Of a stretch of 64,000 nt of DNA, positions 41,192 to 59,748 are shown one piece after another. The stretch is from positions 1,135,761 through 1,199,760 of the forward strand of contig CAXXXD010000004.1 of the NCBI GenBank assembly GCA_963663385.2, read 5' to 3'. The position numbers and the translations under genes are program-made. The notes under the pieces were generated by a model that worked only from the letters and a program-made list of their open reading frames with translations, had not been told where the DNA came from and made no database searches. Every line of letters starts with the position of its first letter. The first letter of the stretch is position 1. The stretch is from Oceanispirochaeta sp. GTDB taxonomy: Bacteria; Spirochaetota; Spirochaetia; DSM-2461.

Positions 41192-41545
41192 ATGAAGAGC
41201 CTCTACCATATTGTCGACAGATCAATTTACAAAAAAGCTTCAGAGACGGGATTCTTCAGTCCGGACAGCGTTGCCGGCTAAGGTTCTATCCATTGCTCCT
41301 ATGCGGAACAGGTCTGCCGGATTGCCAACTGGCTTTATAAAGATGAAACCGATTTGATTTTGCTGGAAATAGACCGGGACAGGACCGGCTGTAAAGTGGC
41401 AGACGAAGATCTTTGTGAAATGAATGAGTTGTTTCCCCATATATACGGCAGTCTGCCGAACAGTGCGGTGATTGCCCGGCATGAATTCAAAGCCGGTTCC
41501 GACGGGATATTCAGACTGCCTGGTTCTGTCGGGGTATCCTGCTGA
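41192..41545 (+). pseudogene. DUF952 family gene with an in-frame TAA at codon 30
   Basis: MKSLYHIV...SVAG*GSIHCS..QV..IAN...LILLEID...FPHIYG.L; stop at 41279-41281 where the family usually has EGFIH; RBS GGGAG. Confidence 0.8.
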
Positions 41546-41849
41546 GTTGTTCTAAATTATTCTAACAGTTACAAAATAATCTCATTATTAGTTGATATCG
41601 GTTGAGCGGGTGATGTCTGCTTGATTTATCTATGGCAGGGGTAATCCTGTTTTTGCCGTGGGAAGGGAGGCTTTACTGCGGTTTTTTGGTTTTAGCTAAC
41701 TAAAGTTAGTATATATTTTACTTTTAAGAAGAGGGGCTTTGGTATAAAATGAAACTGGTTTTACGGATGCGCTGATGGGTTTCAGTGATTCGTCGATTAT
41801 TTATAGGTTATGTAGACATTGTTGCAGGGTATTTTGTTTTAATGGGAAT

Positions 41850-41880
41850 TACCTTGTTCAAGAGATAATAAGTTATATTC
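41850..41880 (+). other. Candidate attI-like site / 5' boundary of the cassette array
   Basis: GTTATATTC at 41872 is the 9-bp complement of GAATATAA|C closing the first cassette; no attC hairpin seen upstream. Confidence 0.55.
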
Positions 41881-41921
41881 GCAGAATGGTTTAATATTTA
41901 TTTATTATAAATGGAGAAACA

Positions 41922-42794
41922 ATGTTAATGTCTTTAGAATTAACAATTTTAGCTGATACAAATTCAAAAATTGGAGAAGAATATAAAACAAATGGAGTTT
42001 CTTATTTAATCGAAATATATAATGATGAAAATTCAATAGAAATACTTTTTGATACAGGGTATGATGGAAAGCAATTAATTAATATTGCTGGAAAACTCAA
42101 TAAAGATTTATCAAAAGTTAATAATATAATCTTAAGTCATGGCCATTTCGATCATACTAATGGACTCTCAACTGTTCTTCATTCAAATAAAAATAAGCCG
42201 AAAATTTACTGCAATGAAAATATTTTTTACAAAAAAATACTAAATTATAATACTCCTGATGCACGGGATATTGGTATTACTGCAAATAATGAGATTAAAT
42301 TCATACAGAACAATACAAACATTCAATATATTAAAGAGAATATGGAAATATTTCCAGGAGTCTGGACCATATCAAATATTCCCAGAAATATTGAAACAAA
42401 TACAATTTCAGGAAATTTAACGAATGTATATAGGGAAAATCCTGATGGAGATTATATCACGGATCCTATAGATGAAGATTCATCTCTACTCATAGAGCTA
42501 AATAAAGAAGAATTATTTCTTATCATTGGTTGCGGGCATAGCGGTATTAAAAATACTATCAAACACATTAATGACAATTTCAACGGAAAAAAAATAATCG
42601 GGATTGTAGGAGGATTACAACTTCATGATAAAGATATTAAGCAAATTGAAGATGTATATTCGTACATTAATAAGTTAAATTTAGAATATTTCTGTCCTAT
42701 TCATAGCACTGGAGAAACAGCAATTAGTTTATTTAAAGAAAATATGGGAAAAGAATTTATAAGTGGTGGGGTTGGAACTGTAATATCAATATAA
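41922..42794 (+). CDS. MBL-fold metallo-hydrolase (COG1237-like), gene cassette 1
   Basis: LFDTG, SHGHFDHTNG, GCGHSG, HSTG; very AT-rich; attC R'' starts a few bp after the stop. Confidence 0.85.
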   Translation: MLMSLELTILADTNSKIGEEYKTNGVSYLIEIYNDENSIEILFDTGYDGKQLINIAGKLNKDLSKVNNIILSHGHFDHTNGLSTVLHSNKNKPKIYCNENIFYKKILNYNTPDARDIGITANNEIKFIQNNTNIQYIKENMEIFPGVWTISNIPRNIETNTISGNLTNVYRENPDGDYITDPIDEDSSLLIELNKEELFLIIGCGHSGIKNTIKHINDNFNGKKIIGIVGGLQLHDKDIKQIEDVYSYINKLNLEYFCPIHSTGETAISLFKENMGKEFISGGVGTVISI

Positions 42795-42807
42795 AATCGG
42801 AATATAA

Positions 42808-44796
42808 ATCGGGTAGCCGGAGGCTTTTAACCTCCAGCCCCCACACCACCCTGCATGCGGGTCCGCACAGGGCGGTTCACTCCATGGAGCAAACGAAACT
42901 ATAATTTGATCATGTGTAGCCCTGGATTTTACACCAGAGGGCCTTAATATTGATCAATCCTTGCTCTTCCAACCATTTATTGGACATAGCGGCATTGGTT
43001 GCATAGCCTTTTGACAGATGCCAGTAGGACTTACTACTTGCTCCTGTCATAATGGCAAAATCTTTCGGAATACCCAGCTCCATCAGTTTCCTGACTTTTG
43101 TTCTGGGGTAACGCCACTGTTTCCAGTAGCACATACGGATTCTTCTTCTCAGCCATTCATCAATTGATTGTAGAGGTCTGTAATATTGGGAAATACCATA
43201 ATAGTTCATCCACCCCCGGATATACTCGTTAAGTTTCCGGAATCGATATTCCATTGATACCCCCCAAGACCGTCTTGTCAAATGCTTTAACTGATATTGA
43301 AACTCCCGAAAGGATGATTCAGTCCATCGGATTTTCTTACCCTTGAAAGTGAATCCCAGAAAACTGCATTCGGAGATTTTACACACCTTGCTTTTCTTCT
43401 GGTTTACAACCAATTTTAACCTGCGACTGAGATAATCACTTATTTCAGTCAATATAGCTTTTCCATCACACAGGCGTTTTGATACAATTAATGCATCATC
43501 TGCGTAACGTGCAAAGCACAGGTTTCTCCGTTCCAACTCCTTATCGAAATTATCAAGAAGGATATTGGAAAGTAGAGGTGATAACGGGCCTCCTTGAGGA
43601 GTCCCGATTTCAGTAGGGATTTTAATCCCATCCTTGTCCATAATACCGGCTCTCAGGTAGCGGCCAATCAATTTCAGGACTGATTTGTCCCGGACTTTCT
43701 TAGCCACACAATGCATCAGAATATCGTGATTTACCGTATCAAAGAACTTTTCCAAGTCCAGATCAACTGCATACTTGTATCCCGATTTAACATAGGTATT
43801 TACCTGTCGTACTGCTCCGTGAGCCGATCTTCCCGGCCTGAATCCAAAACTGCTTTCCGAAAAATCCGAATCGAATAGAGGATTCAAAACCTGTGAAATA
43901 GCCTGTTGGATAACCCTGTCTAAAATAGTGGGAATACCCAGCATTCGCATACCTCCGGATCTCTTGGGGATTTCCACCCTGAGCACCGGAGAGGGTACAT
44001 AGTACCCCAAAAGCAAAGCTTGCTTGATTTTACTCCATCTTCTGCGTAGATATTCCGGAAATTTCTCAATAGTCATGCCATTGACTCCCGGACTGCCGCC
44101 ATTGCGTTTGACCTGTTTCCAGGCCTTACGCATGTTTTCAGATGATAAAATCAAATCCATCATAGAATCGTTCAAGGCTGGTTTCTCCATAATTCGCCAA
44201 AAGTTATTTCGGCCAGTGCTAAAATTGTTCCTTTGAGAACCATAAGGCTCCTCCTTGTGAAATGTTCAGGCCTTCACCGTGAACCGGACATTACTCCGGG
44301 CGTTGGTTACTATGCCTTCTGCTGACTTCTGCCTGCTAATCAACGAGATTGCTCCCGTTGATGCTATACCGTGCTTTTAAACCTGTGACGACTTATTTGT
44401 ACTCAAGATAATCTTGCTCATTTCCAGAGTGTCACCCTCTGAAAAGCCGGGGATTGGTTTTCCGGTTCCCTACCGGATTCTCAGTTTAAAAGAACACATC
44501 ACCGCCCCGCAGACAGATCTCCCCGAATAAGACTGTACACTGTCCCCGGACAACCCTGTGATTTACCCTATTCCATACCCACGGGGCATCGTCATCATTG
44601 GCTGACTCGCCTCTGGAACTGAGCCTTCTATCACATTCTTGTACATGGGCTCCCGGTTTTGCATTCCGGCTTCCTCCAGACATTCCCTCGCGGAAATGCC
44701 CTTGCCTTCAGCTAACAGTTGGTATAGCATGTTCACTATACGTGGGCACCTGTAGAGGACTTTCACCTCATTAGCGTACAGCCATGTCGGGCGTAC
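42808..44796 (-). mobile_element. Group II intron, class IIC-attC type
   Basis: 5' GTACGCCCGACATGG; 3' domain V/VI GAACCGCCCTGTGCGGACCCGCATGCAGGGTGGTGT...CTACCCGAT with CGC triad; inserted antisense in the attC R'' box. Confidence 0.92.
42910..44190 (-). CDS. ltrA: Group II intron reverse transcriptase/maturase, no endonuclease domain
   Basis: R.LGIPT..DR..QQA, SFGFRPGRSAH.A, DLEKFFD, GTPQGGPLSPLLSN, RYADD, FLGF, GWMNYY. Confidence 0.95.
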   Translation of the reverse strand: MEKPALNDSMMDLILSSENMRKAWKQVKRNGGSPGVNGMTIEKFPEYLRRRWSKIKQALLLGYYVPSPVLRVEIPKRSGGMRMLGIPTILDRVIQQAISQVLNPLFDSDFSESSFGFRPGRSAHGAVRQVNTYVKSGYKYAVDLDLEKFFDTVNHDILMHCVAKKVRDKSVLKLIGRYLRAGIMDKDGIKIPTEIGTPQGGPLSPLLSNILLDNFDKELERRNLCFARYADDALIVSKRLCDGKAILTEISDYLSRRLKLVVNQKKSKVCKISECSFLGFTFKGKKIRWTESSFREFQYQLKHLTRRSWGVSMEYRFRKLNEYIRGWMNYYGISQYYRPLQSIDEWLRRRIRMCYWKQWRYPRTKVRKLMELGIPKDFAIMTGASSKSYWHLSKGYATNAAMSNKWLEEQGLINIKALWCKIQGYT

Positions 44797-44892
44797 CAAT
44801 CAAATGCAACTGTCAACTTTTTTGTCATAGTTTTTGAGTGCTCAAAAACTACGCCAACCCTACGGGACAAAGTTGCAGCTGATTTGGGCGTT

Positions 44893-46683
44893 GAGACTGT
44901 AGAAAAAGTCACCTTTTCTACAGCTCTCAGCCAAAACATGGTAAAATTCTATAAAAGGGAGGTTTTCAATAATGGCCAGATATAAAGAGTATTCTTATAC
45001 CCAGACAATGATGATCCCCGTAAGCTTTGAAAAACAGATTTTACCAGGAACATTCGAATATACATTATGCCATCTGATAGACAATCAAATAGATATGTCC
45101 GCATTTGAAAACCATTACGAAAATGATGAAACAGGAGCACCGGCTTATGACCCAGCAATCCTTTTAAAAATAGTCCTTTACGCCTATTCAAAAGGCATAA
45201 ACAGCAGCAGAAAAATTGAACAGTTATGCCGGGAGAATATCGTCTGTATGGCACTGGCTGCCGATTCCAGACCCCACTTTACAACCATTGCCGATTTTAT
45301 CTCTTCCCGTCATAAAGAGTGCCAAACCCTATTTACCATGATACTCTCTGTTTGCTACACACAGGGACTGATCGGCAAAAACATGTTTGCCATTGACGGC
45401 TGCAAGATCTCCTCAAACTGTTCAAAGGAATGGAGCGGAACCAAAGCGGAACTATTTGCCAAAACAAAGAAAATAGAGAAATCCGTAAACTATCTGATTG
45501 AAAAACACAAGAATACGGATGCCAGTTGGGAAGATAAAGAGCAGCGTAAAAAAGAAAAGAAAGCCATCAAAAAGCTAAAGGCTAAAACAGATAAAATCTA
45601 CAAATGGCTGGATACCCATTATGACCGGTTCGGTAGTCAGGATCAGCCCATCAAAAGCAATATTGTGGATAACGAAAGCGCCAAAATGTCTACCGGACAC
45701 GGTGTTATACAGGGTTACAACGGCATTGCCGCCGTAGATGACAAACATCAGCTGATCATATTTGCCGACACCTACGGCGATGCAAACGAATCAGGACACC
45801 TTACAGAGATTCTGGAAGGAATTGATAAGAGCTGTAAAAACTCCCATATAGATGATGAGATCTACAAGCATGTGACGGTCACAGCGGATACAGGATTCCA
45901 TAATAAAAAGAACATGCAAATGATCAGCGAGAAGAAGATAGATGCCTATATCCCGGACAATCAGTTCAGGAAAAGGCATGTTGCCTTCCAGGATGCCGGA
46001 AAATACAAAAAGAAAGTCGCCAACTGGAAACCGGAAAAAGGAAAGCACTATTTTCGTCCGGAAGACTTTTATATGGATACGGCAAACAACCAACTGATCT
46101 GTCCTGCCGGACATGCCATGTGGCTGAAATCCCCCAACTTCAGAAGCAATGACGGTCGGTATACCGGAAAATCTTATCAAGGGCATATACGCAATTGTCG
46201 CGACTGTAAACTTCGTTCAAAATGTATAAGAAAGGAAACGACAAAAGCCCGTCAGGTTGCCATACTAAAGGAAGTGCCGGAAAGAAAAGGGAGCAATCCC
46301 ATGGCCGATATGAAGGAGAAAATTGATACGCCCTATGGACGATCAGTTTATGCAAAACGGATGAGTACGGTAGAACCTGTATTCGGACATATTGCCGGAA
46401 TGAAAAAGCTGAATCGCTTTACTTTACGGGGTACGGAAAAGGTCCGGACACAGTGGTTGTTGTACTGTATGGTGCATAATATCGGGAAAATCCAGCAGTA
46501 TAGTGCGTAGGAATACGGAAAAGTGCTAAAGAATGGGTATAGCGTTGGATAAAACCAATTGTAGTTGAATATAGCCGGTTTTAATCGGATTGAATATTGA
46601 AATTAATGAGATGATTGATTTTTCGGAATGAGTGCTTTCAAGGGAGCCTTGAAAAAACCCAGTTTGAGTTTTTCTACAGTCTC
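44893..46683 (+). mobile_element. IS1182-family element, copy 1 (1791 bp)
   Basis: TIRs GAGACTGTAGAAAA / TTTTCTACAGTCTC; GTT duplicated on both sides. Confidence 0.92.
44972..46510 (+). CDS. IS1182-family transposase
   Basis: GAPAYDP..LLK..LYAY..G..SSR.IE, P.F.TI..F, AIDG.K, GYN, ADTGF, CPAG, R..TVEPVFG. Confidence 0.93.
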   Translation: MARYKEYSYTQTMMIPVSFEKQILPGTFEYTLCHLIDNQIDMSAFENHYENDETGAPAYDPAILLKIVLYAYSKGINSSRKIEQLCRENIVCMALAADSRPHFTTIADFISSRHKECQTLFTMILSVCYTQGLIGKNMFAIDGCKISSNCSKEWSGTKAELFAKTKKIEKSVNYLIEKHKNTDASWEDKEQRKKEKKAIKKLKAKTDKIYKWLDTHYDRFGSQDQPIKSNIVDNESAKMSTGHGVIQGYNGIAAVDDKHQLIIFADTYGDANESGHLTEILEGIDKSCKNSHIDDEIYKHVTVTADTGFHNKKNMQMISEKKIDAYIPDNQFRKRHVAFQDAGKYKKKVANWKPEKGKHYFRPEDFYMDTANNQLICPAGHAMWLKSPNFRSNDGRYTGKSYQGHIRNCRDCKLRSKCIRKETTKARQVAILKEVPERKGSNPMADMKEKIDTPYGRSVYAKRMSTVEPVFGHIAGMKKLNRFTLRGTEKVRTQWLLYCMVHNIGKIQQYSA

Positions 46684-46724
46684 GTTATATTGTGGTGTGC
46701 CCCACTAAAAGTGGACAACTCTAA

Positions 46725-47055
46725 CTATGCACTTAAAGCCATTGCTTCCTCGAATTCCGCTGGACTCTGATAACCGATAGAAGAATGCTTTCGTTTACGG
46801 TTATAGAATACCTCGATATATTCGAAAATGCCAGCACGAGCTTGTTCACTGTTCTGATAATTGCTTGGGTAGATCAGTTCAACTTTAGATCTTGAAAAGA
46901 ATGACTCCATAGGAGCATTATCCCAACAGTTTCCTTTTCGGCTCATACTCAAAGAACACCCCCATGATTGAGCAAAATCTATATATTTTTGTGATCGATA
47001 TTGTACTCCTCTGTCAGAGTGTAGAATTGGACCTTCACCTTTTTTAATCTTTCTC
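46725..47055 (-). pseudogene. IS3 orfB, C-terminal fragment
   Basis: LHSDRGVQY, SMSRKGNCWDNAPMESFF, YNRKRKHS. Confidence 0.9.
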
Positions 47056-47102
47056 GTAAGCGGTAATTCTTCCCACATTGACAGCATTTTAGGACTGATG
47101 GA

Positions 47103-48665
47103 TCAGATTGCAATATCTTCAGCAGTTAAGTTATAGGGAAGTAATTTTTCATAATCACTCTGTTTTTCACAGCAGGGCAATTCCCGGAAGATAAAGTACA
47201 AGTAAGCATAAACTGGAAGATTGTTCATCTTCGCAGATTCAACGAGACTGTACAGAATTGCCGATGATTCAGCACCTTTCGGGCTTCCGGCAAAAAGCCA
47301 GTTTTTTCTCCCGATTACGAAGGGTCTGATTGCATTTTCAGCGCTATTGTTCGAAGGAGTCAAAACAGGATTTTTCAGATATAGAACCAACTGCTCCCAG
47401 TTGCTCAATGTATACTTCATCGCCTTACCGAACTCTAAAGAAGGAGGTACTTGAGGATAAAGCTTCGTCAGTTTTTTCTGTAACTTATCTAGTATCGGTT
47501 CTGCTCTATTTTGTCGCTGTTTATGAAACCCTTTTAGCGAATAATTATCCCGTAATGATTCCAGTTCAAACAGATCCTTTATCAGGTCGAGAATTTGCTT
47601 TGCTTCTGCATCTTTTTTCTTGGTTGATTCCCAATATTGGAAGAACTTTCTTCTGGCATGGGCCCAGCATAAGACATGCTTTATATCTCCATCAACTTTT
47701 TTTCGGGCAGTATGGTAGGCCTCAAAATCATCAGTTTGAACCCAGCCAGAGTAATTTTCCAAGAAATCCAACGGAATTGCATGGGATCGGCCTTGCTCAT
47801 ACTGAAATATGACACATTTTTTATCGGGATCTCCTCTGAGAAAGACCCACATCCATGATTTATCTGAAGCTTTTCGTTTCGGTTCCTTTAGAACCTGAAC
47901 TCTCGTCTCATCGGCATTAATAATGGAACCGGATTTAATGTTTTCTTTCAGCAAATCATATAGAGGCTTACATGCCGTTGCCGATTTTATCGTAAGATTG
48001 CTCAATGTCGCCCGGGGGATCGGTATGCCTATCTGGTTTAACCGTTTTGATTGCCTGTAGAAAGGAAGAGCGAACTCAAACTTTTCGCTTATACTCCAAG
48101 CGAGCAGGCTTTCATCGGCAATACTGCCCGCGACCAGATGCTTTGCTCCTTCTGCGGTCTGTACAGCAGCTTCATCAAGAGTCGTCCCTTCACAATTCTT
48201 GCAGGAGTACTTTTTTCTACGTTCCTGAATAACAACGACTTTTGACGGAATAATTTTTGCTCTCTCGGAAACATCTTCACCGATACAGGTCTTTTCTGTT
48301 CCGCAGGCACAGATCTTATCTTTATCCGGAATATCATATTCCACGATCTCTCTCGGCAGATCTGCCGGCAGAGGTTTCCGGCCGGATTTTTTAATATTTT
48401 TCTTGTAGGAACCGACCTCAACCGTTTCAATAACATTTTTCTCCTGCTCTTCATCATTCTGAGCAAAAGCACTATCTTCCGCTTCATTGAAGAGAGAAGC
48501 TTGTTTCTTATCTTCGGCAGTTATCTTCTCTGATTTTGTTCCAAAGTGCAGGAGGTTCAGTTTTGCTACTTGCTCCTGGAGAATGGCATTAAGTCTTTTC
48601 AGTTCAGCAATTTCTATTTTTTGTGCATCAAGTTGTTCTCTTAAATGCTGTTCTTCATTCTCCAT
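47103..48665 (-). CDS. tnpC: IS66 transposase TnpC
   Basis: GRKPLP..LPR, zinc finger, ADET, CWAHARRKF, NN.AENAIRP..GRKNWLF. Confidence 0.95.
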   Translation of the reverse strand: MENEEQHLREQLDAQKIEIAELKRLNAILQEQVAKLNLLHFGTKSEKITAEDKKQASLFNEAEDSAFAQNDEEQEKNVIETVEVGSYKKNIKKSGRKPLPADLPREIVEYDIPDKDKICACGTEKTCIGEDVSERAKIIPSKVVVIQERRKKYSCKNCEGTTLDEAAVQTAEGAKHLVAGSIADESLLAWSISEKFEFALPFYRQSKRLNQIGIPIPRATLSNLTIKSATACKPLYDLLKENIKSGSIINADETRVQVLKEPKRKASDKSWMWVFLRGDPDKKCVIFQYEQGRSHAIPLDFLENYSGWVQTDDFEAYHTARKKVDGDIKHVLCWAHARRKFFQYWESTKKKDAEAKQILDLIKDLFELESLRDNYSLKGFHKQRQNRAEPILDKLQKKLTKLYPQVPPSLEFGKAMKYTLSNWEQLVLYLKNPVLTPSNNSAENAIRPFVIGRKNWLFAGSPKGAESSAILYSLVESAKMNNLPVYAYLYFIFRELPCCEKQSDYEKLLPYNLTAEDIAI

Positions 48666-48704
48666 ACGGGGAATTCTATCAAAGTTTCTATAATTATAAA
48701 ATCT

Positions 48705-49049
48705 CTAAATACGGGAATATGATAATTTTTTATGCGCTTTGAAAAAGTCTATTCCCGTCAGGAGCATTTTCAATTCATCCATGCTGATCTCTTTAGCATC
48801 TTCATCTGTTTCCGGCCAGGGATATCTGTTCTCTTCCAGTCTCTTCTGCCAGAGACAAAAACCGGTATTATCCCAGTAGACAATTTTCAGAAGTTTTCTC
48901 TGCCGGTTACAAAAGAGGAATAGCGATTTGGCGAATAAATCATGATTCATTTCATTCTGGATAAACAGAGATAATCCGTTGATCGCTTTTCTTAAGTCTG
49001 TCGTGCCGGGTCTCAGAAAGATCCGGTATTCGTTCAGGTCAACAAACAT
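48705..49049 (-). CDS. tnpB: IS66 accessory protein TnpB
   Basis: TDLRK.I.GL, LFLFCNR.R..LKI.YWD..GF.LW.KRLE. Confidence 0.95.
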   Translation of the reverse strand: MFVDLNEYRIFLRPGTTDLRKAINGLSLFIQNEMNHDLFAKSLFLFCNRQRKLLKIVYWDNTGFCLWQKRLEENRYPWPETDEDAKEISMDELKMLLTGIDFFKAHKKLSYSRI

Positions 49050-49345
49050 TACAACTCTCTCAGAATCTTCAGAAGATCTATCAGGGATTGCCTGTTATAA
49101 CCTGATGCCAGATCCAATGAGAAATCCTTGTATCTGAGTATCATTGTGGGGTTTTGTGGCTGTAATACCGGGGCTTTCTGTTTGATTTCAATAAAACTGC
49201 TTTTCTTTAATTTTTTTCGATTCTTGTAGAAAGATGTATAGTGAACTCCTTTATCTGCGCAGAACTCAGAAATTGTTTTCCCGCTCTGTTTTTGTTCTTC
49301 GATTAATTCAGGCCAATTCCAGTTGGTCATATTAGGTTCCTCCAT
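49049..49345 (-). CDS. tnpA: IS66 accessory protein TnpA
   Basis: W..LIEEQ..SG.TI.EFC HTH; first gene of the element. Confidence 0.85.
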   Translation of the reverse strand: MEEPNMTNWNWPELIEEQKQSGKTISEFCADKGVHYTSFYKNRKKLKKSSFIEIKQKAPVLQPQNPTMILRYKDFSLDLASGYNRQSLIDLLKILREL

Positions 49346-49407
49346 GATTTTTCATGGAGTATATAATCATTTCGAAATCACGCAAGATGGAGAGAATTAC
49401 CGCTTAC

Positions 49408-49641
49408 TCTTTCTCCTGGCAAAAGCAACAGATAATGCTTCAATAACTAATTTCTCAGTCATGTCGTCGCCTAGAGCCCAACCAATGATCTTTCTGGAAT
49501 ATAAGTCCATTACAGTTGCGAGATACATCCAGCGATTATTAACCCAGATATAGGTGATGTCTGAAGTCCATTTCTGATTAGGGCCGGTGGCTGTGAAATC
49601 TCTCCAAAGCAAATTATCAGAAACGTTGTTCATTGCCAGAC
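49408..49641 (-). pseudogene. IS3 orfB, middle fragment
   Basis: NLL.RDF.A..PNQKW.SDITY, YLA.V.DLYSR.IIGW. Confidence 0.9.
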
Positions 49642-49765
49642 TGTGAGCAACGGTGCTAGAGTTCCTACATTCAGCGGCGAAAAAGTTCCGCTTTTACTGA
49701 CATAAAAAGGGGCAAATATCCTAAAGTAGAGATTACCACACCTACTACAAAAGGAACCTGCCCCT

Positions 49766-51049
49766 ATGTGTCAAAAGGAAGATCGCATGCATGTAGCACG
49801 CATCATGGCCAACGAAGGCCATACTCAAAAGTATATCGCTGAGTATCTTGGTGTCAGCGACCGGATGGTAAGGAAATACCTGAATCCGGACTTCAGAACC
49901 CGTCCCAGGAAATCCCGGGAAAGCATCCTTAAACCATTCTACCCCATAATAGAAGATACCTTGGAAAATGATCCATACTTCAACCTCGTTTATCTTCATG
50001 AGAGACTACAAAACTCCGGTTATTCTGGAAAAATGACAATCCTACGTGACTATGCCCGGAAGTACAGGAAGAAACTGATTGAGAAAGCAGTAATCCGCTT
50101 TGAAACAGAGCCGGGAAGACAGGCCCAAGTTGACTGGAAAGAATGCGGAAAAATGGAGATTGATGGCAAACTTCAGAAAGTATATGCATTTGTCATGCTG
50201 CTGGGATATAGTAGGATCCCGTTTGTCCTTTTCTCCTTGGATATGACCTCGCCGACATTGCTCCAAGCCCATCTGATGGCATTCCGGTTCTTCGGTGCTG
50301 TTCCGAAGGAAATTCTTTACGACAACATGAGAACAGCCTGGTACAACAACGGCGGTGTCTGGCACGTGAACTCAAAGCTCCTGGCCTTTGCTTCAGCCTG
50401 TGGTTTCACTCCTCTTCGCTGCCAAGTTCGTAGACCGCAAACTAAGGGAAAGGTAGAGCGTTTTATCGGTTACCTGGGCCACAACTTCTTGATCCGTGAA
50501 GAAGCAATGAAGAGCCGCTCAATAAACGATTTAAACCTGACTGTCTCCAAATGGATCAAAACAGTAGTGGAACAGCAGATGAGCCAATTTAAACAGACTC
50601 GAAAAGAGAGATTTGAGTACGAAAGGCAGTTTATGAACCCTTGGAACCCTGAGGCAGCTCCAGATGTAAGGCTGGTTAAAGAACTGCTTGTCTCCAGAGA
50701 AGGGTTTATTCGTTTTGAATCAAACAAGTACAGCATTCCCGCGGACTTCATAGGACAAGTTGCGACACTGAAAGTAGATACGCTGGCAAGAACTGCCGCT
50801 ATCTTCATTGATGGGGCCCCTGTTAGAACCTTCAAGCTTCTGACAAAAGGTGCGAAATTAGAATCTATCCGAAAGATTGATACCGACTCACTGGTTAAAC
50901 GCTGGAAGAAAGAGAATCGCATGACAAAAAGGAATGTCGTTGCCAGTGTCCCGGAAATAAAGAATACTCCCAGGTCATCATTGATGCATACAGAGGTTGA
51001 TACACGCCATCCTGAAAGCTACGACAAGCTTATGGGGGTAACAGCATGA
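49766..51049 (+). CDS. istA: IS21 transposase IstA
   Basis: RFET.PG.QAQVDW, P.EILYDN, PQTKGKVER. Confidence 0.95.
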   Translation: MCQKEDRMHVARIMANEGHTQKYIAEYLGVSDRMVRKYLNPDFRTRPRKSRESILKPFYPIIEDTLENDPYFNLVYLHERLQNSGYSGKMTILRDYARKYRKKLIEKAVIRFETEPGRQAQVDWKECGKMEIDGKLQKVYAFVMLLGYSRIPFVLFSLDMTSPTLLQAHLMAFRFFGAVPKEILYDNMRTAWYNNGGVWHVNSKLLAFASACGFTPLRCQVRRPQTKGKVERFIGYLGHNFLIREEAMKSRSINDLNLTVSKWIKTVVEQQMSQFKQTRKERFEYERQFMNPWNPEAAPDVRLVKELLVSREGFIRFESNKYSIPADFIGQVATLKVDTLARTAAIFIDGAPVRTFKLLTKGAKLESIRKIDTDSLVKRWKKENRMTKRNVVASVPEIKNTPRSSLMHTEVDTRHPESYDKLMGVTA

Positions 51050-51810
51050 ATGTACTGCAGGAGACCATAGAGATCAGGATGAACGACTTAGGGCTGGAGT
51101 TTATGGCGGCGGGGTTGGAGAGCTTCCTTGAAGCTCAATCTCACACAGAAAACACTCTCTCTCAGTCAATTGCAGACCTATTGGAACTGGAGTACGTTCC
51201 CCGTAAGGAGAGAGCTGCAAAAAGCCGTCTGAAGCTCTCTGGAATGCCATCGATCAAGCTATTAGAGGACTTCGACCTATCCTGGTTGAAGGGAGGATTG
51301 ACCGCTGCTCAACTGGCAGAGTTTTCTAGTCTGGCTTTCATTGAAAGAAAGGAAAATCTAGTACTGATGGGGCCAAGTGGATTGGGTAAAACCCATTTGA
51401 TGCTAGCTCTGGCTCATAAAGCCTGTCAGAATGGTTATACTGTATGGTATACAAGCTGCATCGATCTGATGGAGAATCTGACCCATGCCCGGGAGCAGGG
51501 GCGGTTGAAGCGACGGCTTACCTGGCTTAGAAAGCCTCATCTCATCCTTATCGATGAAGTTGGCTACGAGAACCTGACGAAAGAACAGGCCAACTTGTTT
51601 TTTCAGATTGTAAACACCCGCTATGAACAAGGCAGTATGATCATCACCACAAACAAGTCTTTCGGTCGTTGGGCTGAGATTCTGGATGATGAAGCCATTG
51701 CGACAGCGACTATAGACAGGCTCCTTCACCATGCACATGTCCTGAGTCTTAAAGGGGATTCATACCGGATGAAAGACCGGTTGAAAATAGGGATCGTTGA
51801 TCCTGTTTAA
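51046..51810 (+). CDS. istB: IS21 helper ATPase IstB
   Basis: GPSGLGKTHL, LILIDEVGY, TIDRLLHH, G.SYR. Confidence 0.95.
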   Translation: MNVLQETIEIRMNDLGLEFMAAGLESFLEAQSHTENTLSQSIADLLELEYVPRKERAAKSRLKLSGMPSIKLLEDFDLSWLKGGLTAAQLAEFSSLAFIERKENLVLMGPSGLGKTHLMLALAHKACQNGYTVWYTSCIDLMENLTHAREQGRLKRRLTWLRKPHLILIDEVGYENLTKEQANLFFQIVNTRYEQGSMIITTNKSFGRWAEILDDEAIATATIDRLLHHAHVLSLKGDSYRMKDRLKIGIVDPV

Positions 51811-51872
51811 TTTTACCCAGAAGCGGAACTTTTAAACCGTTGAAATGAGGAACTTTTTCACCGCTGTTGACA

Positions 51873-52194
51873 CCAGACTGTGGCGTGGATATTTAAATCC
51901 TCGCCCGTTGTGAGCTTTTATCCCTTTATCCTTCATGATTTGTGCTATAAGGTTTTCTGAGCAGGAATAACCGAGGTCTTTAAGCTCTGATGCGATGCGA
52001 CGAGATCCATAAGCAGCTTTGAAGCTCTCATAAGTATTTTTTACTAAGATTTCCAGGCGGTTCTTTCTTTGCAACATCTTACCTGGTGTCCAGTGAGTCC
52101 ATTTGTAGTAGCCAGATCTGGATACATCGAGCATACGGCACATTAAGGTGATAGAAAATTGCTTTTTGTGTTCTCTTATCATGGCGTATTTCAC
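51873..52194 (-). pseudogene. IS3 orfB, N-terminal fragment
   Basis: MCR.L.VSRSGYY.W, YGSRRI..EL. Confidence 0.88.
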
Positions 52195-52499
52195 TTCTGG
52201 CCGTTGGCGAAATACGCTGCGGCTTTTTTTAAGAAATCTACTTCTTCCTTGAGCTTCTTATTCTCTCTGCGAAGTTTTCTAACCTCTTCACTTTCATTCT
52301 TGGAATAGTCGACTCCGTCCATTGTGTTGAACTGTTTATCTGATAACCGGGTAAATTGTCTTTTCCAGTTATAGATTTGCTGAGCGCTGATCCCTAGCTC
52401 CTCAGCGACCTTTCTAGCTGAATTACCCTCTTGCTCTGATCGTCTCACCGCCTCTCTACGGAAGTCCTCCGCATAGGCCTGAACTTTCTTTCGCGACAT
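52191..52499 (-). CDS. IS3 orfA (HTH), with an A7G -1 frameshift motif at 52223-52230
   Basis: FRREAV, VAEELGIS...IYNWK, LKEE..FLKKAAAYFA. Confidence 0.9.
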   Translation of the reverse strand: MSRKKVQAYAEDFRREAVRRSEQEGNSARKVAEELGISAQQIYNWKRQFTRLSDKQFNTMDGVDYSKNESEEVRKLRRENKKLKEEVDFLKKAAAYFANGQK

Positions 52500-52786
52500 T
52501 TAAACACCCTCCATAATCAATCATAATCTAACTATAGTAGGTGTCCACTTTCTTTGGGGCACTGTGATCGAACACATTTTGTACTTCTGGTTCTTTCATA
52601 ATTGCCAGATGATTTAGTAGGTTTTAGGGTTTTGATACGGGTTGATTGATGCTCACACTACACTGATTATCTATCTTTGACGCCGGTTGCGGCTGGCAGA
52701 AGTGGAAATAAGGGCATTCGCCTTCACCTACGTTTATTAAGATATTCTTGCCTGATATGGTATCGGTGATTTACAAAATGCTGTAG

Positions 52787-52961
52787 ACATAACAAGAAAA
52801 TGATACTGTCGTCGCTACAGATCACATTTCTTGCAGAGATACAGAATGCTGATAAATAGTTCTTTCTTAAAAACAAATTACTGTTTAAAATAAGTCTGCA
52901 AGAAAAGCGCCTGTACCTGTCCTTCGGCCAGGCCGCTCCGCAGCATATTTTGGCGTTATAC
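52787..52961 (+). other. attC site 2 (175 bp)
   Basis: ACATAAC AAGAA AATGATACTG...CAGCATATT TTGGC GTTATAC; internal stem TTTCTTGCAGA/TCTGCAAGAAA. Confidence 0.75.
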
Positions 52962-52980: not shown

Positions 52981-53913
52981 ATGGATTTTGAAATTGTCAT
53001 TGATGAAAGTTTTATACATCTCTGTAGTGATGATACATTAGAGCCAATCGAGAATAAGTATGTTCTATCTCTAATAAATGATTACGAAGATGGTAAATGG
53101 AGATATGGCAAATTTCATAACTTTATTTGGGATAATATTGCTGAAACGTCCTTATCATATTCTGAGAGAGAGAGTCTAATCGATCAACCGCATTCAAAAT
53201 TAGTAGCGGCAGCACAAAGTTTACGTTTAACTGATGCTGATAAAGATGACATAGGTAAAGGTAGTGAATTAGCTGAAATAATACTCTATGGAATTATGAA
53301 ACACCATTTTAATGCTTTACCAGTAGTTCCAAAAATATTCTATAAACAAAATTCTCAGGATAATGCTAAAGGTGCTGACTCTGTTCATATTGTTGTCGAT
53401 AAAGATGAAAACTTTACAATATGGTTTGGAGAAGCAAAATTTTTTAATGATATTAGTAATACTAGATTAGGAAATATTATAATCTCAGTAGGAAACTCTT
53501 TACGTACGGATAAGCTGAAAAGAGAAAATAGTATAATAACAAATCTTAATGATTTAGATCCCTTAATTGATAACAAAGAACTGACAGAAGAAATTAAGAG
53601 ATGTTTATCATACAAGAATTCTATTGATGAATTGAAGCCTAAATTACATATTCCTATATTGCTTTTACATGAATGTGAAATAACGAAATTGAACACAAGT
53701 TTATCACAGCAACACATTGATGAGATTAAAGAATATCATTCAGATAGAGCAAATGCATACTATAAAAAACATATTAAAAAACTATCTGAATTACATTTAT
53801 ATAATGAAATTACATTTCATCTTATTTTGTTTCCAGTTCCTTTGAAAGAAAAGATTGTAAATAGATTTACGAGAACAGTGAAAAACTATAAAGACGAGTA
53901 TGAAAATGATTGA
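52981..53913 (+). CDS. hamA: Hachiman anti-phage protein HamA (DUF1837 nuclease)
   Basis: G.ELAEIILY, KGADSVH, WFGEAKF motifs; overlaps the helicase gene. Confidence 0.85.
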   Translation: MDFEIVIDESFIHLCSDDTLEPIENKYVLSLINDYEDGKWRYGKFHNFIWDNIAETSLSYSERESLIDQPHSKLVAAAQSLRLTDADKDDIGKGSELAEIILYGIMKHHFNALPVVPKIFYKQNSQDNAKGADSVHIVVDKDENFTIWFGEAKFFNDISNTRLGNIIISVGNSLRTDKLKRENSIITNLNDLDPLIDNKELTEEIKRCLSYKNSIDELKPKLHIPILLLHECEITKLNTSLSQQHIDEIKEYHSDRANAYYKKHIKKLSELHLYNEITFHLILFPVPLKEKIVNRFTRTVKNYKDEYEND

Positions 53914-55987
53914 TGTCTTTGAGAAATTACACATAATAAATGACAATATTACAAATAACCAGTATGATTTAGCTCGCAATCGAATAATAATTCTTCTTGG
54001 ATATATCCACAATAGAAGACTAGATTTCCCACCAGCTTTAAATCATTTCATCAGACAAGTTGGACTTTATCCCTATTTAAATATTGATAGTGCTTCATGG
54101 CAAGAAAAGTTTATATATGAAGCTTTTAAAGTTGATGTAGGAGATCAAAAACTAACGTTACATAGGGAACAATCGAATCTTCTTAAACAACTTATTGAAG
54201 GTAAAGATATTGCAGTAAGTGCACCAACAAGTTTTGGTAAAAGTTTTGTAATAGATTCATATATTGCAATTAAAAAGCCAAAGAATGTATTAATAATAGT
54301 ACCAACAATAGCATTAACTGATGAAACAAGGCGGAGAATACAGAATAAATTTGGTACTGAATATAAAATTATAACAACTACTGAAATCACTCTTGCAGAG
54401 AAGAACATATTTATTTTTCCACAAGAAAGAGCTGCTCATTATTCTGATAAAATTGAGAATTTAGATATTCTTATTATTGATGAATTTTATAAGGCAAGTA
54501 AAAAATATGATAAAGAACGTTCTCCATCTTTATTAAGAGCTATAGTAAAATTAAGCAAAAAAGCAGATCAAAGATATTTTTTAGCACCAAATATTAATAA
54601 ATTAAATGATAGCTTATTCACGAAAAATATGGAATTTATATCGCTTGATTTCAATACTGTCTATTTAAAGAAATATGATATGGTTGAAGAAATAAATGAA
54701 GATTATACAAAGAGCGATGCATTACTTGATATTTGCAAAAAATATAAGGGGAAGACATTAATATATGCAGGTACATATGCGTGCATTAAAGAAATATCAA
54801 ATTTATTTATAGAAGCATTACCTCTAAAGAATAGTCGTTTATTAAAAGATTTCGCTGATTGGCTTGACTCTAACTACACAAAAAATTGGCAACTAACAAG
54901 TCTAATTCGTAGAGGTTGTGGTATTCATAATGGAAAGTTACATCGTTCTTTAAGTCAAATACAAATAAAATTGTTTGAAGAAATTACTGGTTTATCAAGA
55001 ATTATTTCGACCTCTTCAATAATTGAAGGAGTTAATACTTCTGCTGAAAATATAGTTCTATGGAGAAATAAGAACGGAAATCAAAAACTTAATGATTTCA
55101 CATATAAAAATATTATTGGTAGAGGTGGGAGGATGTTCAAGTACTTTGTTGGGAATATTTTCCTTCTTGAAAGTCCACCAGAACAGGAAGAGAATCAGTT
55201 AGATCTTGAATTTACTGAAGAAATAGCATTAAGCGTTGATGAAGAACTATATCAAACGGAGTTAACAAAAGAGCAAGTTGCAAAAATCATTGAGAAGAAG
55301 GATGAGATAGATAATTTAATAGGTCATGAATCTTATTTGAAACTTGATAGAGATGGAATCTTTAATGATAGTGACACTACAACAATTATAAATATAACTA
55401 AGGATCTTCTTAATAACCCGGAACAATGGAATGGATTTACATATTTAAATTCAAGTGATCCGTCTCAATGGGAAAGTTTACTCTATAAAATAATTAAACT
55501 TATGCCTGGTTCAGTTGGTACCACATATAAGAAGTTTGTGAACTTTGTAATGATTATTTCTGATAACTGGAATAAATCAATGCAAGAATTATTAAATGAA
55601 TTATCAAGAGTTGATATTAGCATAGATGAATTTTTTGATTTAGAAAGAACCGTAAGTTTTAAATTTTCTTCCTTTCTAAACGATTTAAATTCTATTCAGA
55701 AAGAAATATTCAAGACAGAGAAATATGATATTTCTCCTTTTATTGCTAAGGTATCTCATGTATTTTTACCTCCTAATGTTTATATATTAGAGGAGTATGG
55801 TCTCCCAAGAATGATTTCCAAAAAGATACATAAGTCTAATGTTTTAAATTTGGAAGAAAGAATTGAAATCCATGATTTATTGAAAGAGTTCAATAGTATT
55901 GGATATGCTGAATTGATCAAAAAAACAAATAGAATAGAAGAATTTGATAAATATATATTACAACATTTTTACGATGGTTTACGATGA
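53900..55987 (+). CDS. hamB: Hachiman SF2 DEAD/DEAH-box helicase HamB
   Basis: SAPTSFGKS, VPTIAL, IIDEFY, HNG.L, TSSIIEGVNT, N..GRGGR. Confidence 0.85.
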   Translation: MKMIDVFEKLHIINDNITNNQYDLARNRIIILLGYIHNRRLDFPPALNHFIRQVGLYPYLNIDSASWQEKFIYEAFKVDVGDQKLTLHREQSNLLKQLIEGKDIAVSAPTSFGKSFVIDSYIAIKKPKNVLIIVPTIALTDETRRRIQNKFGTEYKIITTTEITLAEKNIFIFPQERAAHYSDKIENLDILIIDEFYKASKKYDKERSPSLLRAIVKLSKKADQRYFLAPNINKLNDSLFTKNMEFISLDFNTVYLKKYDMVEEINEDYTKSDALLDICKKYKGKTLIYAGTYACIKEISNLFIEALPLKNSRLLKDFADWLDSNYTKNWQLTSLIRRGCGIHNGKLHRSLSQIQIKLFEEITGLSRIISTSSIIEGVNTSAENIVLWRNKNGNQKLNDFTYKNIIGRGGRMFKYFVGNIFLLESPPEQEENQLDLEFTEEIALSVDEELYQTELTKEQVAKIIEKKDEIDNLIGHESYLKLDRDGIFNDSDTTTIINITKDLLNNPEQWNGFTYLNSSDPSQWESLLYKIIKLMPGSVGTTYKKFVNFVMIISDNWNKSMQELLNELSRVDISIDEFFDLERTVSFKFSSFLNDLNSIQKEIFKTEKYDISPFIAKVSHVFLPPNVYILEEYGLPRMISKKIHKSNVLNLEERIEIHDLLKEFNSIGYAELIKKTNRIEEFDKYILQHFYDGLR

Positions 55988-56091
55988 CCGTATAACAATC
56001 GCATGAAACTGAATTTTTCTTTGTCATGCTTTTTGCCTGCGCAAAAATCCTGCCAACCTTACGGGACGAAAAATCAGCTTATGCGGGCGTT

Positions 56092-57882
56092 GAGACTGTA
56101 GAAAAAGTCACCTTTTCTACAGCTCTCAGCCAAAACATGGTAAAATTCTATAAAAGGGAGGTTTTCAATAATGGCCAGATATAAAGAGTATTCTTATACC
56201 CAGACAATGATGATCCCCGTAAGCTTTAAAAAACAGATTTTACCAGGAACATTCGAATATACATTATGCCATCTGATAGACAATCAAATTGATATGTCAG
56301 TTTTTGAAAACCACTACGAAAATGATGAAACCGGAGCTCCCGCCTACGACCCTGCCATCCTCTTAAAAATAGTCCTTTACGCCTATTCAAAAGGCATAAA
56401 CAGCAGCAGAAAAATTGAACAGTTATGCCGGGAGAATATCGTCTGTATGGCTCTGGCTGCCGATTCCAGACCCCACTTTACAACCATTGCCGATTTTATC
56501 TCTTCCCGTCATAAAGAGTGCCAATCCCTCTTTACCATGATACTCTCTGTTTGCTACACACAGGGACTGATCGGCAAAAACATGTTTGCCATTGACGGCT
56601 GCAAGATCTCCTCAAACTGTTCAAAGGAATGGAGCGGAACCAAAGCGGAACTATTTGCCAAAACAAAGAAAATAGAAAAATCCGTAAACTATCTGATTGA
56701 AAAACACAAGAATACAGATGCCAGCTGGGAAGAGAAAGAGCAGCGTAAAAAAGAAAAGAAAGCCATCAAAAAGCTAAAGGCTAAAACAGATAAAATCTAC
56801 AAATGGCTGGATACCCATTATGACCGGTTCGGTAGTCAGGATCAGCCCATCAAAAGCAATATTGTGGATAACGAAAGCGCCAAAATGTCTACCGGACACG
56901 GTGTTATACAGGGTTACAACGGCATTGCCGCCGTAGATGACAAACATCAGCTGATCATATTTGCCGACACCTACGGCGATGCAAACGAATCAGGACACCT
57001 TACAGAGATTCTGGAAGGAATTGATAAGAGCTGTAAAAACTCCCATATAGATGATGAGATCTACAAGCATGTGACGGTCACAGCGGATACAGGATTCCAT
57101 AATAAAAAGAACATGCAAATGATCAGCGAGAAGAAGATAGATGCCTATATCCCGGACAATCAGTTCAGGAAAAGGCATGTTGCCTTCCAGGATGCCGGAA
57201 AATACAAAAAGAAAGTCGCCAACTGGAAACCGGAAAAAGGAAAGCACTATTTTCGTCCGGAAGACTTTTATATGGATACGGCAAACAACCAACTGATCTG
57301 TCCTGCCGGACATGCCATGTGGCTGAAATCCCCCAACTTCAGAAGCAATGACGGTCGGTATACCGGAAAATCTTATCAAGGGCATATACGCAATTGTCGC
57401 GACTGTAAACTTCGTTCAAAATGTATAAGAAAGGAAACGACAAAGGCCCGTCAGGTTGCCATACTGAAGGAAGTGCCGGATGGAAAAGGGAGCAATCCCA
57501 TGGCCGGTATGAAGGAGAAAATTGATACGCCCTATGGACGATCAGTTTATGCAAAACGGATGAGTACGGTAGAACCTGTATTCGGACATATTGCCGGAAT
57601 GAAAAAGCTGAATCGCTTTACTTTACGGGGTACGGAAAAGGTCCGGACACAGTGGTTGTTGTACTGTATGGTGCATAATATCGGGAAAATCCAGCAGTAT
57701 AGTGCGTAGGAATACGGAAAAGTGCTAAAGAATGGGTATAGCGTTGGATAAAACCAATTGTAGTTGAATATAGCCGGTTTTAATCGGATTGAATATTGAA
57801 ATCAAAGAGATGAATGATTTTTCCAAATGAGTGCTTTCAGGGGAACCTTGAAAATACCCAGTTTGAGTTTTTCTACAGTCTC
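56092..57882 (+). mobile_element. IS1182-family element, copy 2 (1791 bp)
   Basis: Same TIRs and length as copy 1; GTT duplicated. Confidence 0.92.
56171..57709 (+). CDS. IS1182-family transposase
   Basis: Near-identical to 44972-46510. Confidence 0.93.
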   Translation: MARYKEYSYTQTMMIPVSFKKQILPGTFEYTLCHLIDNQIDMSVFENHYENDETGAPAYDPAILLKIVLYAYSKGINSSRKIEQLCRENIVCMALAADSRPHFTTIADFISSRHKECQSLFTMILSVCYTQGLIGKNMFAIDGCKISSNCSKEWSGTKAELFAKTKKIEKSVNYLIEKHKNTDASWEEKEQRKKEKKAIKKLKAKTDKIYKWLDTHYDRFGSQDQPIKSNIVDNESAKMSTGHGVIQGYNGIAAVDDKHQLIIFADTYGDANESGHLTEILEGIDKSCKNSHIDDEIYKHVTVTADTGFHNKKNMQMISEKKIDAYIPDNQFRKRHVAFQDAGKYKKKVANWKPEKGKHYFRPEDFYMDTANNQLICPAGHAMWLKSPNFRSNDGRYTGKSYQGHIRNCRDCKLRSKCIRKETTKARQVAILKEVPDGKGSNPMAGMKEKIDTPYGRSVYAKRMSTVEPVFGHIAGMKKLNRFTLRGTEKVRTQWLLYCMVHNIGKIQQYSA

Positions 57883-57926
57883 GTTATGCCAAAAAAAAGT
57901 ACTCATACTAAGAGGTGTGGACAAAA

Positions 57927-59660
57927 ATGTTAAACTCAAATATCCTCAAACAAAAATTGGCTGCAATTGATGGGCAGGATTATGCAGGCTATCAGTCTCT
58001 TTTGGGTACATACGATTTCAATCTATTTACGCTGATTATTCAGCAAATACCCAAAGATCCATACGCTCCACCGCACACCGGTATTTACCGGATTCAGGTT
58101 CGACGCAAAGATCACTGCATTATTCGTTTGAAAATTGAATCAAAAGTGCAAAGGATTGTATGCGCTGATTTCCTGGCAAGATATTTTTTCGATTCCAGTC
58201 AACGAATTTCCAAAGGTATTCGCGGAACAGGATTCAGCGGAATTATTACAATTAATCAACCGGGTCAAGCTATTTTAGAAAGAAACAGCGTGGTCATCAC
58301 GGATGACATTATCGAAATACGTTGCTTTTTAGGGCTTCCTGCGGATGGCAGAAAAATTATTTCCAAAATTGCCGAAAACATGCTTTTCAATGAGCTTCCA
58401 AAAATTGTCAACGAATCGTTGTTACATGAAAATATTGACCATGAGGCGTTAACTGCACACATCGAGGTAGCAGAAGATGCCGAGTATCTCCGCAATAAAC
58501 TTCATTCTCTCGGACTCATCGCTTTTATTGCAGACAATTCAATCCTTCCTCGCGAAAGCGGTCCAAGTGATAAACCGATGTCCAATAAATCAGCAATCCC
58601 TTTTTCTACGCCAGATAGTCTCATGAAGGAAATAGAACTTCCACATGCCGGAAAGATAACAGGTATGGGTGTCCCCAAAGGGATTACGTTAATTACCGGC
58701 GGAGGTTACCATGGGAAATCGACATTACTCAATGCCCTGGATGTCGCTATATATGATCACATTCCGGGAGATGGCCGGGAACGATGTGTTTCAAATGCAC
58801 AAACAGTCAAGATACGGGCATATAGCGGACGATCTGTCGTAAAAACAGATATATCACCTTTCATTAAGAATCTTCCATTCCAAAAAGATACGACATCGTT
58901 TTGCACAGAGAATGCCAGTGGTAGTACCTCACAAGCCGCAAATATTATAGAGGCTATTGAAGTAGGTGCTGAGGTATTGTTAATGGATGAAGACACATGC
59001 GCAACGAATTTTATGATCCGTGACAGCAAAATGCAGCAATTGGTAAACAAAGAAGATGAGCCAATAACGACTTTTATTGATAAGGTAAAGCAGCTTTATT
59101 TTGAAAAGAATATCTCAACCGTTCTGGTTTTGGGAGGTGTGGGTGATTATTTCGATATTTCTGATTTGGTTATCCAGATGAAAAATTATCAACCATTAGA
59201 TATGACTTCCGAGGCGCATAAGATTGCGGAATTGTTTCCAGCGAAACGTAAGGTTGAAGATGAAGCTTACCCATTTCATATTCGTGAGCGAATTCCGGTA
59301 TCTGAGAGCATCGATCCACTCAATGATTATGGAAAATTCACTATCTATGCGAAAGAGACTCATCGGTTAAATTTTGGGAAACAGGTGATTGATCTCACGG
59401 ATGTGGAGCAGCTTATGGAATTATCTCAAACAAAAGCTTTAGGGTATGCCATTGAATACGCAAAAAAAATCATGGATAAAGAAATGTCACTGCGTGATAT
59501 TGTTAATCGCGTAACAAAAGAAATTGACGAGCATGGCATTGATGTTATCAGCGATAAGATTTCTGGTCATTTTGCTTGGTTTAGAGCGCTTGAATTAGCT
59601 TTTACTTTGAACCGTCTCAGAGGTCTTGATGCCATTCAAAAAGATGTTGATGAAATCTGA
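57927..59660 (+). CDS. Predicted ABC-class ATPase (COG3044 / PF09818-like), gene cassette
   Basis: DPYAPP, LPR.SG..D.PM, GGGYHGKSTLL, H..GDGRE, NASGSTSQA, LLMDEDTCATNFM.RD. Confidence 0.88.
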   Translation: MLNSNILKQKLAAIDGQDYAGYQSLLGTYDFNLFTLIIQQIPKDPYAPPHTGIYRIQVRRKDHCIIRLKIESKVQRIVCADFLARYFFDSSQRISKGIRGTGFSGIITINQPGQAILERNSVVITDDIIEIRCFLGLPADGRKIISKIAENMLFNELPKIVNESLLHENIDHEALTAHIEVAEDAEYLRNKLHSLGLIAFIADNSILPRESGPSDKPMSNKSAIPFSTPDSLMKEIELPHAGKITGMGVPKGITLITGGGYHGKSTLLNALDVAIYDHIPGDGRERCVSNAQTVKIRAYSGRSVVKTDISPFIKNLPFQKDTTSFCTENASGSTSQAANIIEAIEVGAEVLLMDEDTCATNFMIRDSKMQQLVNKEDEPITTFIDKVKQLYFEKNISTVLVLGGVGDYFDISDLVIQMKNYQPLDMTSEAHKIAELFPAKRKVEDEAYPFHIRERIPVSESIDPLNDYGKFTIYAKETHRLNFGKQVIDLTDVEQLMELSQTKALGYAIEYAKKIMDKEMSLRDIVNRVTKEIDEHGIDVISDKISGHFAWFRALELAFTLNRLRGLDAIQKDVDEI

Positions 59661-59664
59661 ATGA

Positions 59665-59685
59665 GGCACAACCCAGGCGTTATAT
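59665..59685 (+). other. Internally deleted attC remnant (R'' and R' only)
   Basis: GGCACAAC CCAGGC GTTATAT, 4 bp after the ATPase stop; GGCACAAC is a 7/8 complement of GTTATGCC that opens this cassette. Confidence 0.55.
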
Positions 59686-59748
59686 CGCTTGAGAAAATAA
59701 TTTAAATAAACTATTATTGCAATATACGTTACTGTAATGGTGGTTGCT

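Follow-up and report, generated by a model that had tools for sequence, protein, structure and literature searches.

The 64-kb stretch of DNA analysed here, hereafter the window, is the terminal part of contig C4 in a 5.3-Mb Oceanispirochaeta genome (contigs C1-C4), the closest named transposase relative belonging to an Oceanispirochaeta metagenome-assembled genome (90%). It carries a cassette array in which three unrelated mobile elements, a group IIC intron, an insertion sequence (IS) of the IS1182 family and an IS3-type element, share one attC site (attC1) at the first junction. A sequence-only reading of this DNA had described the succession ATATAA, antisense intron of 1989 nt, attC body, IS1182 and GTTATAT, with two unrelated elements on opposite arms of one hairpin. 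All of these coordinates hold, and the intron does lie in the R'' box and IS1182 at R'. The occupied site is composed as follows.

42802-42807, plus strand: first six R'' bases (ATATAA) of attC1, from the sequence, split from the remainder by the intron
42808-44796, minus strand: group IIC intron, 1989 nt, GTACG...CCCGAT, in the bottom strand of R'' at TTG|TTA
42910-44190, minus strand: intron reverse transcriptase (RT)/maturase, 426 aa, TIGR04416 above cut-off, Pfam RVT_1 and GIIM only
44797-44892, plus strand: attC1 body, C AATCA...GGGC GTT, from sequence and bottom-strand fold, with the last C of R'' (44797), L'' (44803-44810) and L' (44878-44884)
44890-44892, plus strand: R' triplet GTT, left copy of the duplication, from sequence and fold
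44893-46683, plus strand: IS1182-family element, 1791 bp, with a 3-bp GTT flanking repeat and ends fixed by five full copies
44972-46510, plus strand: IS1182 transposase (NF033551, 286 bits against a cut-off of 270)
46684-46692, plus strand: right GTT copy with the start of cassette 2 (GTTAT) and the left IS3-type duplication ATTG
46693-52566, minus strand: IS3-type element immediately following GTTAT, in reverse orientation to its relatives
47056-49407 and 49642-51872: IS66 and IS21 insertions splitting the IS3-type element

Removal of the intron and of IS1182 with one GTT copy restored a 106-bp attC, as the sequence-only reading had proposed. Its bottom strand (the folded string containing one additional flanking base) folded at -25.9 kcal/mol with a z of -7.3, and none of 200 shuffles was equally stable. 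The R''/R' boxes (RYYYAAC...GTTRRRY) pair in this rejoined allele, and the L'' box AATGCAAC and L' box GCTGATT exhibited 6/7 Watson-Crick pairs and one wobble with position 4 omitted; the extra L'' base is present, with the bulge placed one base off in the minimum free energy fold. The perfect complement ATATAAC/GTTATAT, pointed out earlier, exists but is partly luck: GTTATAT directly follows IS1182 (46684-46690), its TTATAT is part of the next cassette, and cassette 1 also starts with GTTATAT, its copy standing at the attI site (41872-41878). That the assembly wrongly joined three repeats seems hardly credible: each of the three neighbours is a repeat or includes one and no public contig covers the stretch from end to end, but taking the elements out restores a well-folding attC and the known cassette 2 start almost to the base, and an independent case occurs in genome G440. 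Moreover, a contig of the public sequence run X7 matches 44605-44916 without difference, across the intron end, the attC and 24 IS1182 bases, fewer than the 31 required to count the IS joint as bridged. In the contigs of the four public runs examined, no joint restored the empty site, a result that carries no weight.

The intron exhibited the RNA marks of group IIC, namely the CGC triad in domain V, a GUGYG-like start, an AY end and the bulged A, and matched Rfam RF00029, RF01998 and RF02001. Pfam detected no endonuclease domain in its RT/maturase. The whole domain I folded with a z of -1.8, and the position of exon-binding site 1 is taken from alignment only. In an RT tree of 17 rows, in which the references are unnamed class 1 integron introns and not named type strains, the RT fell into a clade of 10 rows with class 1 integron attC introns (support 98/99), apart from the terminator-type introns, and it is 48-52% identical to the RTs of class 1 integron introns. 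Seven full-length copies in the genome differ by 0-9 of 1989 bases; the five identical ones, all on C2, suggest recent mobility. The exon ends in TTG for all eight copies with a 5' end, six of which lie in the R'' box of an attC, antisense to the cassettes, with one of the other two after a terminator-like hairpin and one inside an IS66. The proteobacterial introns compared insert at TTGT|TA (5/5), and the window intron one base earlier. In the available excerpts of PMC7923331 the TTGT/T register is a majority consensus and not an absolute rule. Because its RT sits in the IIC-attC clade and its insertion is at TTG/T, outside the TTGT/T register, the window intron is, on its sequence, a register variant inside that clade. 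Intron junctions in genome G407 followed TTG in 9/11 cases, with one ATG and one TTA.

Other introns were seen at or near such sites. A 71%-identical intron in G407 (L165, C1:1046735) has yet a different register (bottom strand, GTTA|TA); where in R'' insertion happens thus depends on the lineage. Relics of a second group II intron type (Rfam D1D4-2, start GTGTG) at C3:~756347 (L004) and C1:~28800 (L005) each occupy the L'' region of an attC-like site and run in the cassette direction.

The IS1182 element is bounded by perfect 15-bp terminal inverted repeats. A BLAST search of the genome showed that all 7 IS1182 right ends are followed by GTTAT, and 8/9 sites or remnants lie inside four arrays. 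Since all 7 matches belong to the attC lineage, the genome holds no non-attC IS1182 control. Outside the genome we surveyed 117 loci. Both ends were found in 69, flanked by GTT/GTT (63), AAC/AAC (3) or other triplets (3), and a single end in 36, with GTT (33), AAC (2) or another triplet (1); 12 loci had no end found. The AAC-flanked copies were considered as R'' insertions and rejected, as they are reversed copies at the R' triplet, in an orientation fixed within the lineage. A strict attC rule devised in this analysis, which misses real sites including this one, was passed with IS1182 at R' by 41 of the 87 scoreable flanks and with IS1182 at R'' by none, on a background of 3/500 random GTT sites and 1/350 shuffles (<1%). 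The first four IS1182 bases after GTT gave GTTRRR in 79/85 cases and GTTRRRY in 45/85. Because the left end thus supplies three purines after GTT, the core would be rebuilt by insertion, with the IS becoming the leading part of the following cassette.

The repeated bases match the crossover triplet exactly, which raises the question of whether the integron integrase could insert an IS1182 circle with an end-GTT-end junction at G|TT and leave the same GTT repeat. Junctions of this kind do occur in tandem copies (L049, L122, L224, L226), and the IS1182 copies of one lineage share a single orientation, every end examined in G675 being reversed. We nevertheless consider this route improbable, as the transposase keeps intact frames and its acidic residues are invariant, and the IS3-type element comes to lie in that neighbourhood with a 4-bp duplication of the ordinary kind. 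In addition, genomes G216 and G149 (94% and 99% complete) contain at least three IS1182 copies at GTT each and gave no TIGR02249 match, although another tyrosine recombinase may be present there.

Some IS1182 copies (L025-L027, L030, L037-L039 and L044-L046, in G216, G281, G289 and G149) stand at GTT beside long hairpin-like repeats, and in G216, G281 and G289 the adjoining genes are oriented towards the element. Because G216 and G149 lack a TIGR02249 match, they may have an integron-like system that uses a different recombinase. A hybrid promoter at the IS1182 right end and GTTATAT (46664-46691, 9/12 match) was given no weight, 22 such sites being found against 15.8 +/- 3.7 expected.

The third element had been noted in the sequence-only reading as an IS3 start a few bases on. 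It begins indeed at 46693, after ATTG, but judged by its sequence context it is a third attC core-site specialist and not a bystander. It has the IS3 layout, an OrfA with helix-turn-helix and an OrfB with integrase core, and intact relatives measure ~1.27 kb; three of its pieces match NF033516, and the splitting of the element keeps every one of them under the cut-off. Members of the IS3 family typically have the termini 5'-TG...CA-3', and site preference is found within the family, in members targeting repetitive extragenic palindromes such as IS1397. Here the ends, as set by the duplications, begin with CAGA, CGGA or CACA and finish with ACCA, and we use the label IS3-type because of this difference. 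The target duplication of the window copy is 4 bp with one mismatch (ATTG/ATCG). Among 18 relatives in 7 spirochaete genomes, GTTAT or GTTAA occupies -9 to -5 in 15; of the remainder, one is shifted by one base, one is without the motif, and L206 has a one-base variant. A 4-bp duplication was found in 11 of the 16 two-ended relatives, the attC rule was passed by 8 of the 15 core-adjacent ones, and intI was present in 4/4 of the spirochaete genomes searched. Three of five matches in a plasmid collection were examined (Vibrio campbellii, V. alginolyticus and Pseudoalteromonas), and an attC precedes the element in each, with the same offset in the two Vibrio records; one of these three gammaproteobacterial records has a clean duplication. 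Viral contigs gave weak partial matches only, and a search of 401 genomes for the junction pattern gave 5 matches against 4 in the control, the 2 examined not being IS ends. None of 400 genomes of the G675 class gave a match, and two family searches added no genus.

Co-occupancy was scored by hand over 31 junctions in four arrays, 8 of them omitted for a lost or unreadable attC. The 23 remaining sites held both the intron and IS1182 (2, one a relic), the intron only (5), IS1182 only (5) or neither (11). The pile-up emphasized in the sequence-only reading is thus real but not special: 2 double sites were observed against 2.1 expected (Fisher p = 1), or 1 against 1.6 without the relic (p = 0.63), and further cases exist elsewhere. 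In a pattern search of 38 family genomes, the intron-attC-IS junction was found in the window genome and in G440, which belongs to another genus and keeps only an IS-end stub (C155). In L013, one attC has an IS110-family element at one end and a tandem IS1182 at the other. Sharing of an attC is therefore recurrent and unremarkable where each element is common. That the combination recurs (the relic at C2:1653332-1652850, G440:C155, L013) could also be taken as a sign that the elements cooperate, or that double occupancy is selected for freezing a useful cassette. We think this very unlikely, as the frequency in this genome is that of chance, no double site fits the pattern in G407, a genome with 12 matches to the intron RT and a single IS1182, and the intron alone would cripple the site.

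Taken together, these data make it probable that three lineages occupy three fixed attC positions by independent arrival, each likely homing on cassette sites. Several points weigh against this view. The IS1182 copy at C3:287670 and the IS3 relative L206 are not in an attC; the surveyed loci are best matches, related and non-independent; 46/87 IS1182 flanks and 7/15 IS3-type flanks fail the attC rule, which also misses real sites; 12 of the 15 core-adjacent IS3-type relatives come from one genus; the occupancy tally has low power, with 8/31 junctions left out; and the IS1182 copies look mosaic, which weakens dating. Some of these observations also favour the idea that the IS recognize a short sequence only (~YGTTR for IS1182, GTTAT for the IS3 type) and not the hairpin, the motif-rich, insertion-tolerant arrays then mimicking specificity. 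At IS1182 loci, C stands before GTT in 66/85 cases and A after it in 56/75, roughly one flank in two does not pass the attC rule, and the two off-array insertions include L206 at a one-base motif variant. Such targeting is partly compatible with independent homing. As a full account we find it rather unlikely, given that 8/9 IS1182 sites or remnants of the 5.3-Mb genome are confined to four arrays and that the hairpin is always on one side, with IS1182 at R' and never at R''; the related IS1272 is, moreover, reported to recognize a stem-loop structure (PMC5678879, in the excerpts available).

Under independent homing, the intron would reverse-splice beside the bottom-strand hairpin, as in IIC-attC introns, and its triplet mismatch would largely stop recombination and so fuse cassettes 1 and 2. 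IS1182 and the IS3-type element would insert through their own DDE transposases, both leaving the site recombinable and being carried as the leading part of the cassette downstream, and the pile-up would require neither cooperation nor selection. A broader proposal, which we put forward tentatively, is that the attC core may be a niche that several unrelated specialists divide by position, where two widespread DDE lineages, IS1182 at the crossover GTT and an IS3 type at GTTAT+4, recognize the site in its folded or integrase-bound form with no guide RNA, spare its function and then move with the next cassette as its leading part, introns and IS1111 taking the other arm and destroying the site.

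The sequence-only reading had treated the intron and IS1182 as two insertions of one site; both insertions are confirmed, but they are not equivalent. In the IS1182-only allele the GTT/AAC triplet remains paired (fold of -23.1 kcal/mol), and since the IS lies at the GTT where crossover takes place and provides a new GTTRRR core through its end, the attC likely remains usable. In the present allele, the intron end changes AAC to ACC and the R-box pairing is gone in the fold. A mismatch of the triplet middle base lowers IntI1 recombination from 2.2e-3 to 6e-6, about 370-fold (available excerpts of PMC2811028). Because the intron mispairs the triplet at the position where a mismatch cut recombination by IntI1, another integrase, attC1 is likely crippled. 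The earlier proposal that the intron locks cassette 1 in place is better worded as a likely fusion that makes cassettes 1 and 2 a single unit of 11 kb (41872-52961).

That reading had also suggested ordering the events through empty or singly occupied alleles. Cassette 1 was found in none of the 40 relatives searched for this purpose; a near-identical attC stands empty on C1 at ~30,210. Cassette 1 likely integrated while its own attC was intact. The intron weakly appears to have arrived last, because its copies differ by 0-9 bases against 34-140 bases for the IS1182 copies of the genome, and the hairpin of an IS1182-only site would still be an intron target. This order is weak because the IS copies are mosaic and IS1182 possibly hitch-hiked on cassette 2.

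Elements parasitizing attC sites are of an already known kind, and the intron half of the arrangement is a known phenomenon (PMC3001079, PMC7923331); this comparison draws on excerpts of the papers cited. The IIC-attC introns (S.ma.I2, G.s.I1, class 1 integron introns) share with the window intron the bottom-strand R'' insertion antisense to the cassettes, an RT without endonuclease, the occasional use of terminator-like hairpins and the 5' end GTACGCCC, the start GUACG matching the G.s.I1 primer printed in PMC3001079. The window intron differs from them by inserting at TTG|TTA, one base from TTGT|TA. The IS1111-attC group (ISKpn4, ISPst6; PMC11187229) likewise places an IS at a fixed attC position, with a DEDD transposase and a guide RNA, whereas the elements here are a DDE IS1182, which has terminal inverted repeats and is flanked by repeated GTT, and an IS3 type flanked by a 4-bp repeat; no IS1182 or IS3-type protein of the window matched NF033542, the IS110-type DEDD transposase. 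IS1272/TnSha1 of staphylococci has a transposase of the same IS1182 family and a reported stem-loop target (PMC5678879). It replaces the stem-loop with no duplication, unlike the window lineage, which keeps the hairpin and repeats the constant GTT at its foot. IS3-family elements also occur in the cassette arrays of the Vibrio cholerae chromosomal integron (PMC11023631). The available text describes insertion there in a cassette coding sequence, with neither duplication nor targeting, whereas a fixed offset from GTT is found here, in spirochaetes and in Vibrio.

The attC-targeting elements that we found in print, IIC-attC introns and IS1111-type IS, are RNA-guided, as far as the available excerpts go. 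The homing habit of both IS lineages appears undescribed: no description of IS1182 or IS3 targeting attC was found in the literature, provisionally, with ISfinder and paper supplements outside the scope, and the available parts of PMC8876359, PMC12444791, PMC1382264, PMC13656550 and PMC9137128 added nothing on the subject. If it is true that two DDE lineages find sequence-diverse attC sites, a protein-only route to structure-directed insertion would exist. Site-sparing insertions would then let IS spread by cassette excision and site-breaking ones would fuse cassettes, and together spread and fusion would explain the decay of sedentary arrays. Such insertions also hide attC sites from integron-finding software. 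Beyond giving a single genome four natural alleles of the site (empty, intron, IS, both), double occupancy adds little.

The array around attC1 and the related sites of the genome comprise the following features.

41695-41878, plus strand: attI-like site heading the array, with no adjoining intI (conserved core 41851-41878, crossover G at 41872)
41922-42794, plus strand: cassette 1 gene, 290 aa, metallo-beta-lactamase-fold hydrolase
52567-52961, plus strand: rest of the gene-less cassette 2, with its empty attC at 52787-52961
55990-57889, plus strand: second attC, 3' of hamAB-like genes, occupied by IS1182 only (56092-57882, GTT repeat)
C1:37709-37742, C2:1687449-1687632 and C3:727342-727525: other attI copies
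C2:1687729-1688955: only intI of the genome (TIGR02249)

The window attI is 70-74% identical to the array-heading stretches on C2, beside intI, and on C3; the ~180 bases 5' of cassette 1 resemble the intI-adjacent attI of C2, and a core of ~25 bases heads four arrays (C1, C2, C3 and the window). No intI was found near the window array, which therefore lacks the intI beside attI of a complete integron. The window holds an orphan attI array, one of three that the genome has in addition to the complete integron. It resembles CALIN, defined in the excerpts of PMC7923331 as attC arrays without neighbouring intI, but unlike them keeps a copy of the genome's attI. The single intI would serve the four attI-headed arrays at most in trans, three of them being without integrase. 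The assignment of the cassette 1 product is at fold level only, below the class B beta-lactamase cut-off. Cassette 2 is the cassette standing first at the C1 and C2 attI, with a variant first at C3, and because of this cassette 1 likely integrated in front of it.

A gene-less cassette of ~400 bp is repeated at least 7 times (window 46684-52961, C1, C2 and several places of C3), mostly first after attI and with a long attC (~175 bp), and it may carry a promoter or an RNA. In the distal part of the complete integron (C2:1650900-1675300), intron, IS66 and IS21 are nested in each other and attC sites are deleted. A truncated attC after an ABC-ATPase cassette of the window (59658-59686) has an R''-R' spacing of ~10 bases only, and a short gene 5' of attI (41193-41545) contains an in-frame stop near 41279. 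Cassette 3 (52981-55987) encodes HamA and a helicase, a Hachiman-like defence pair by Pfam.

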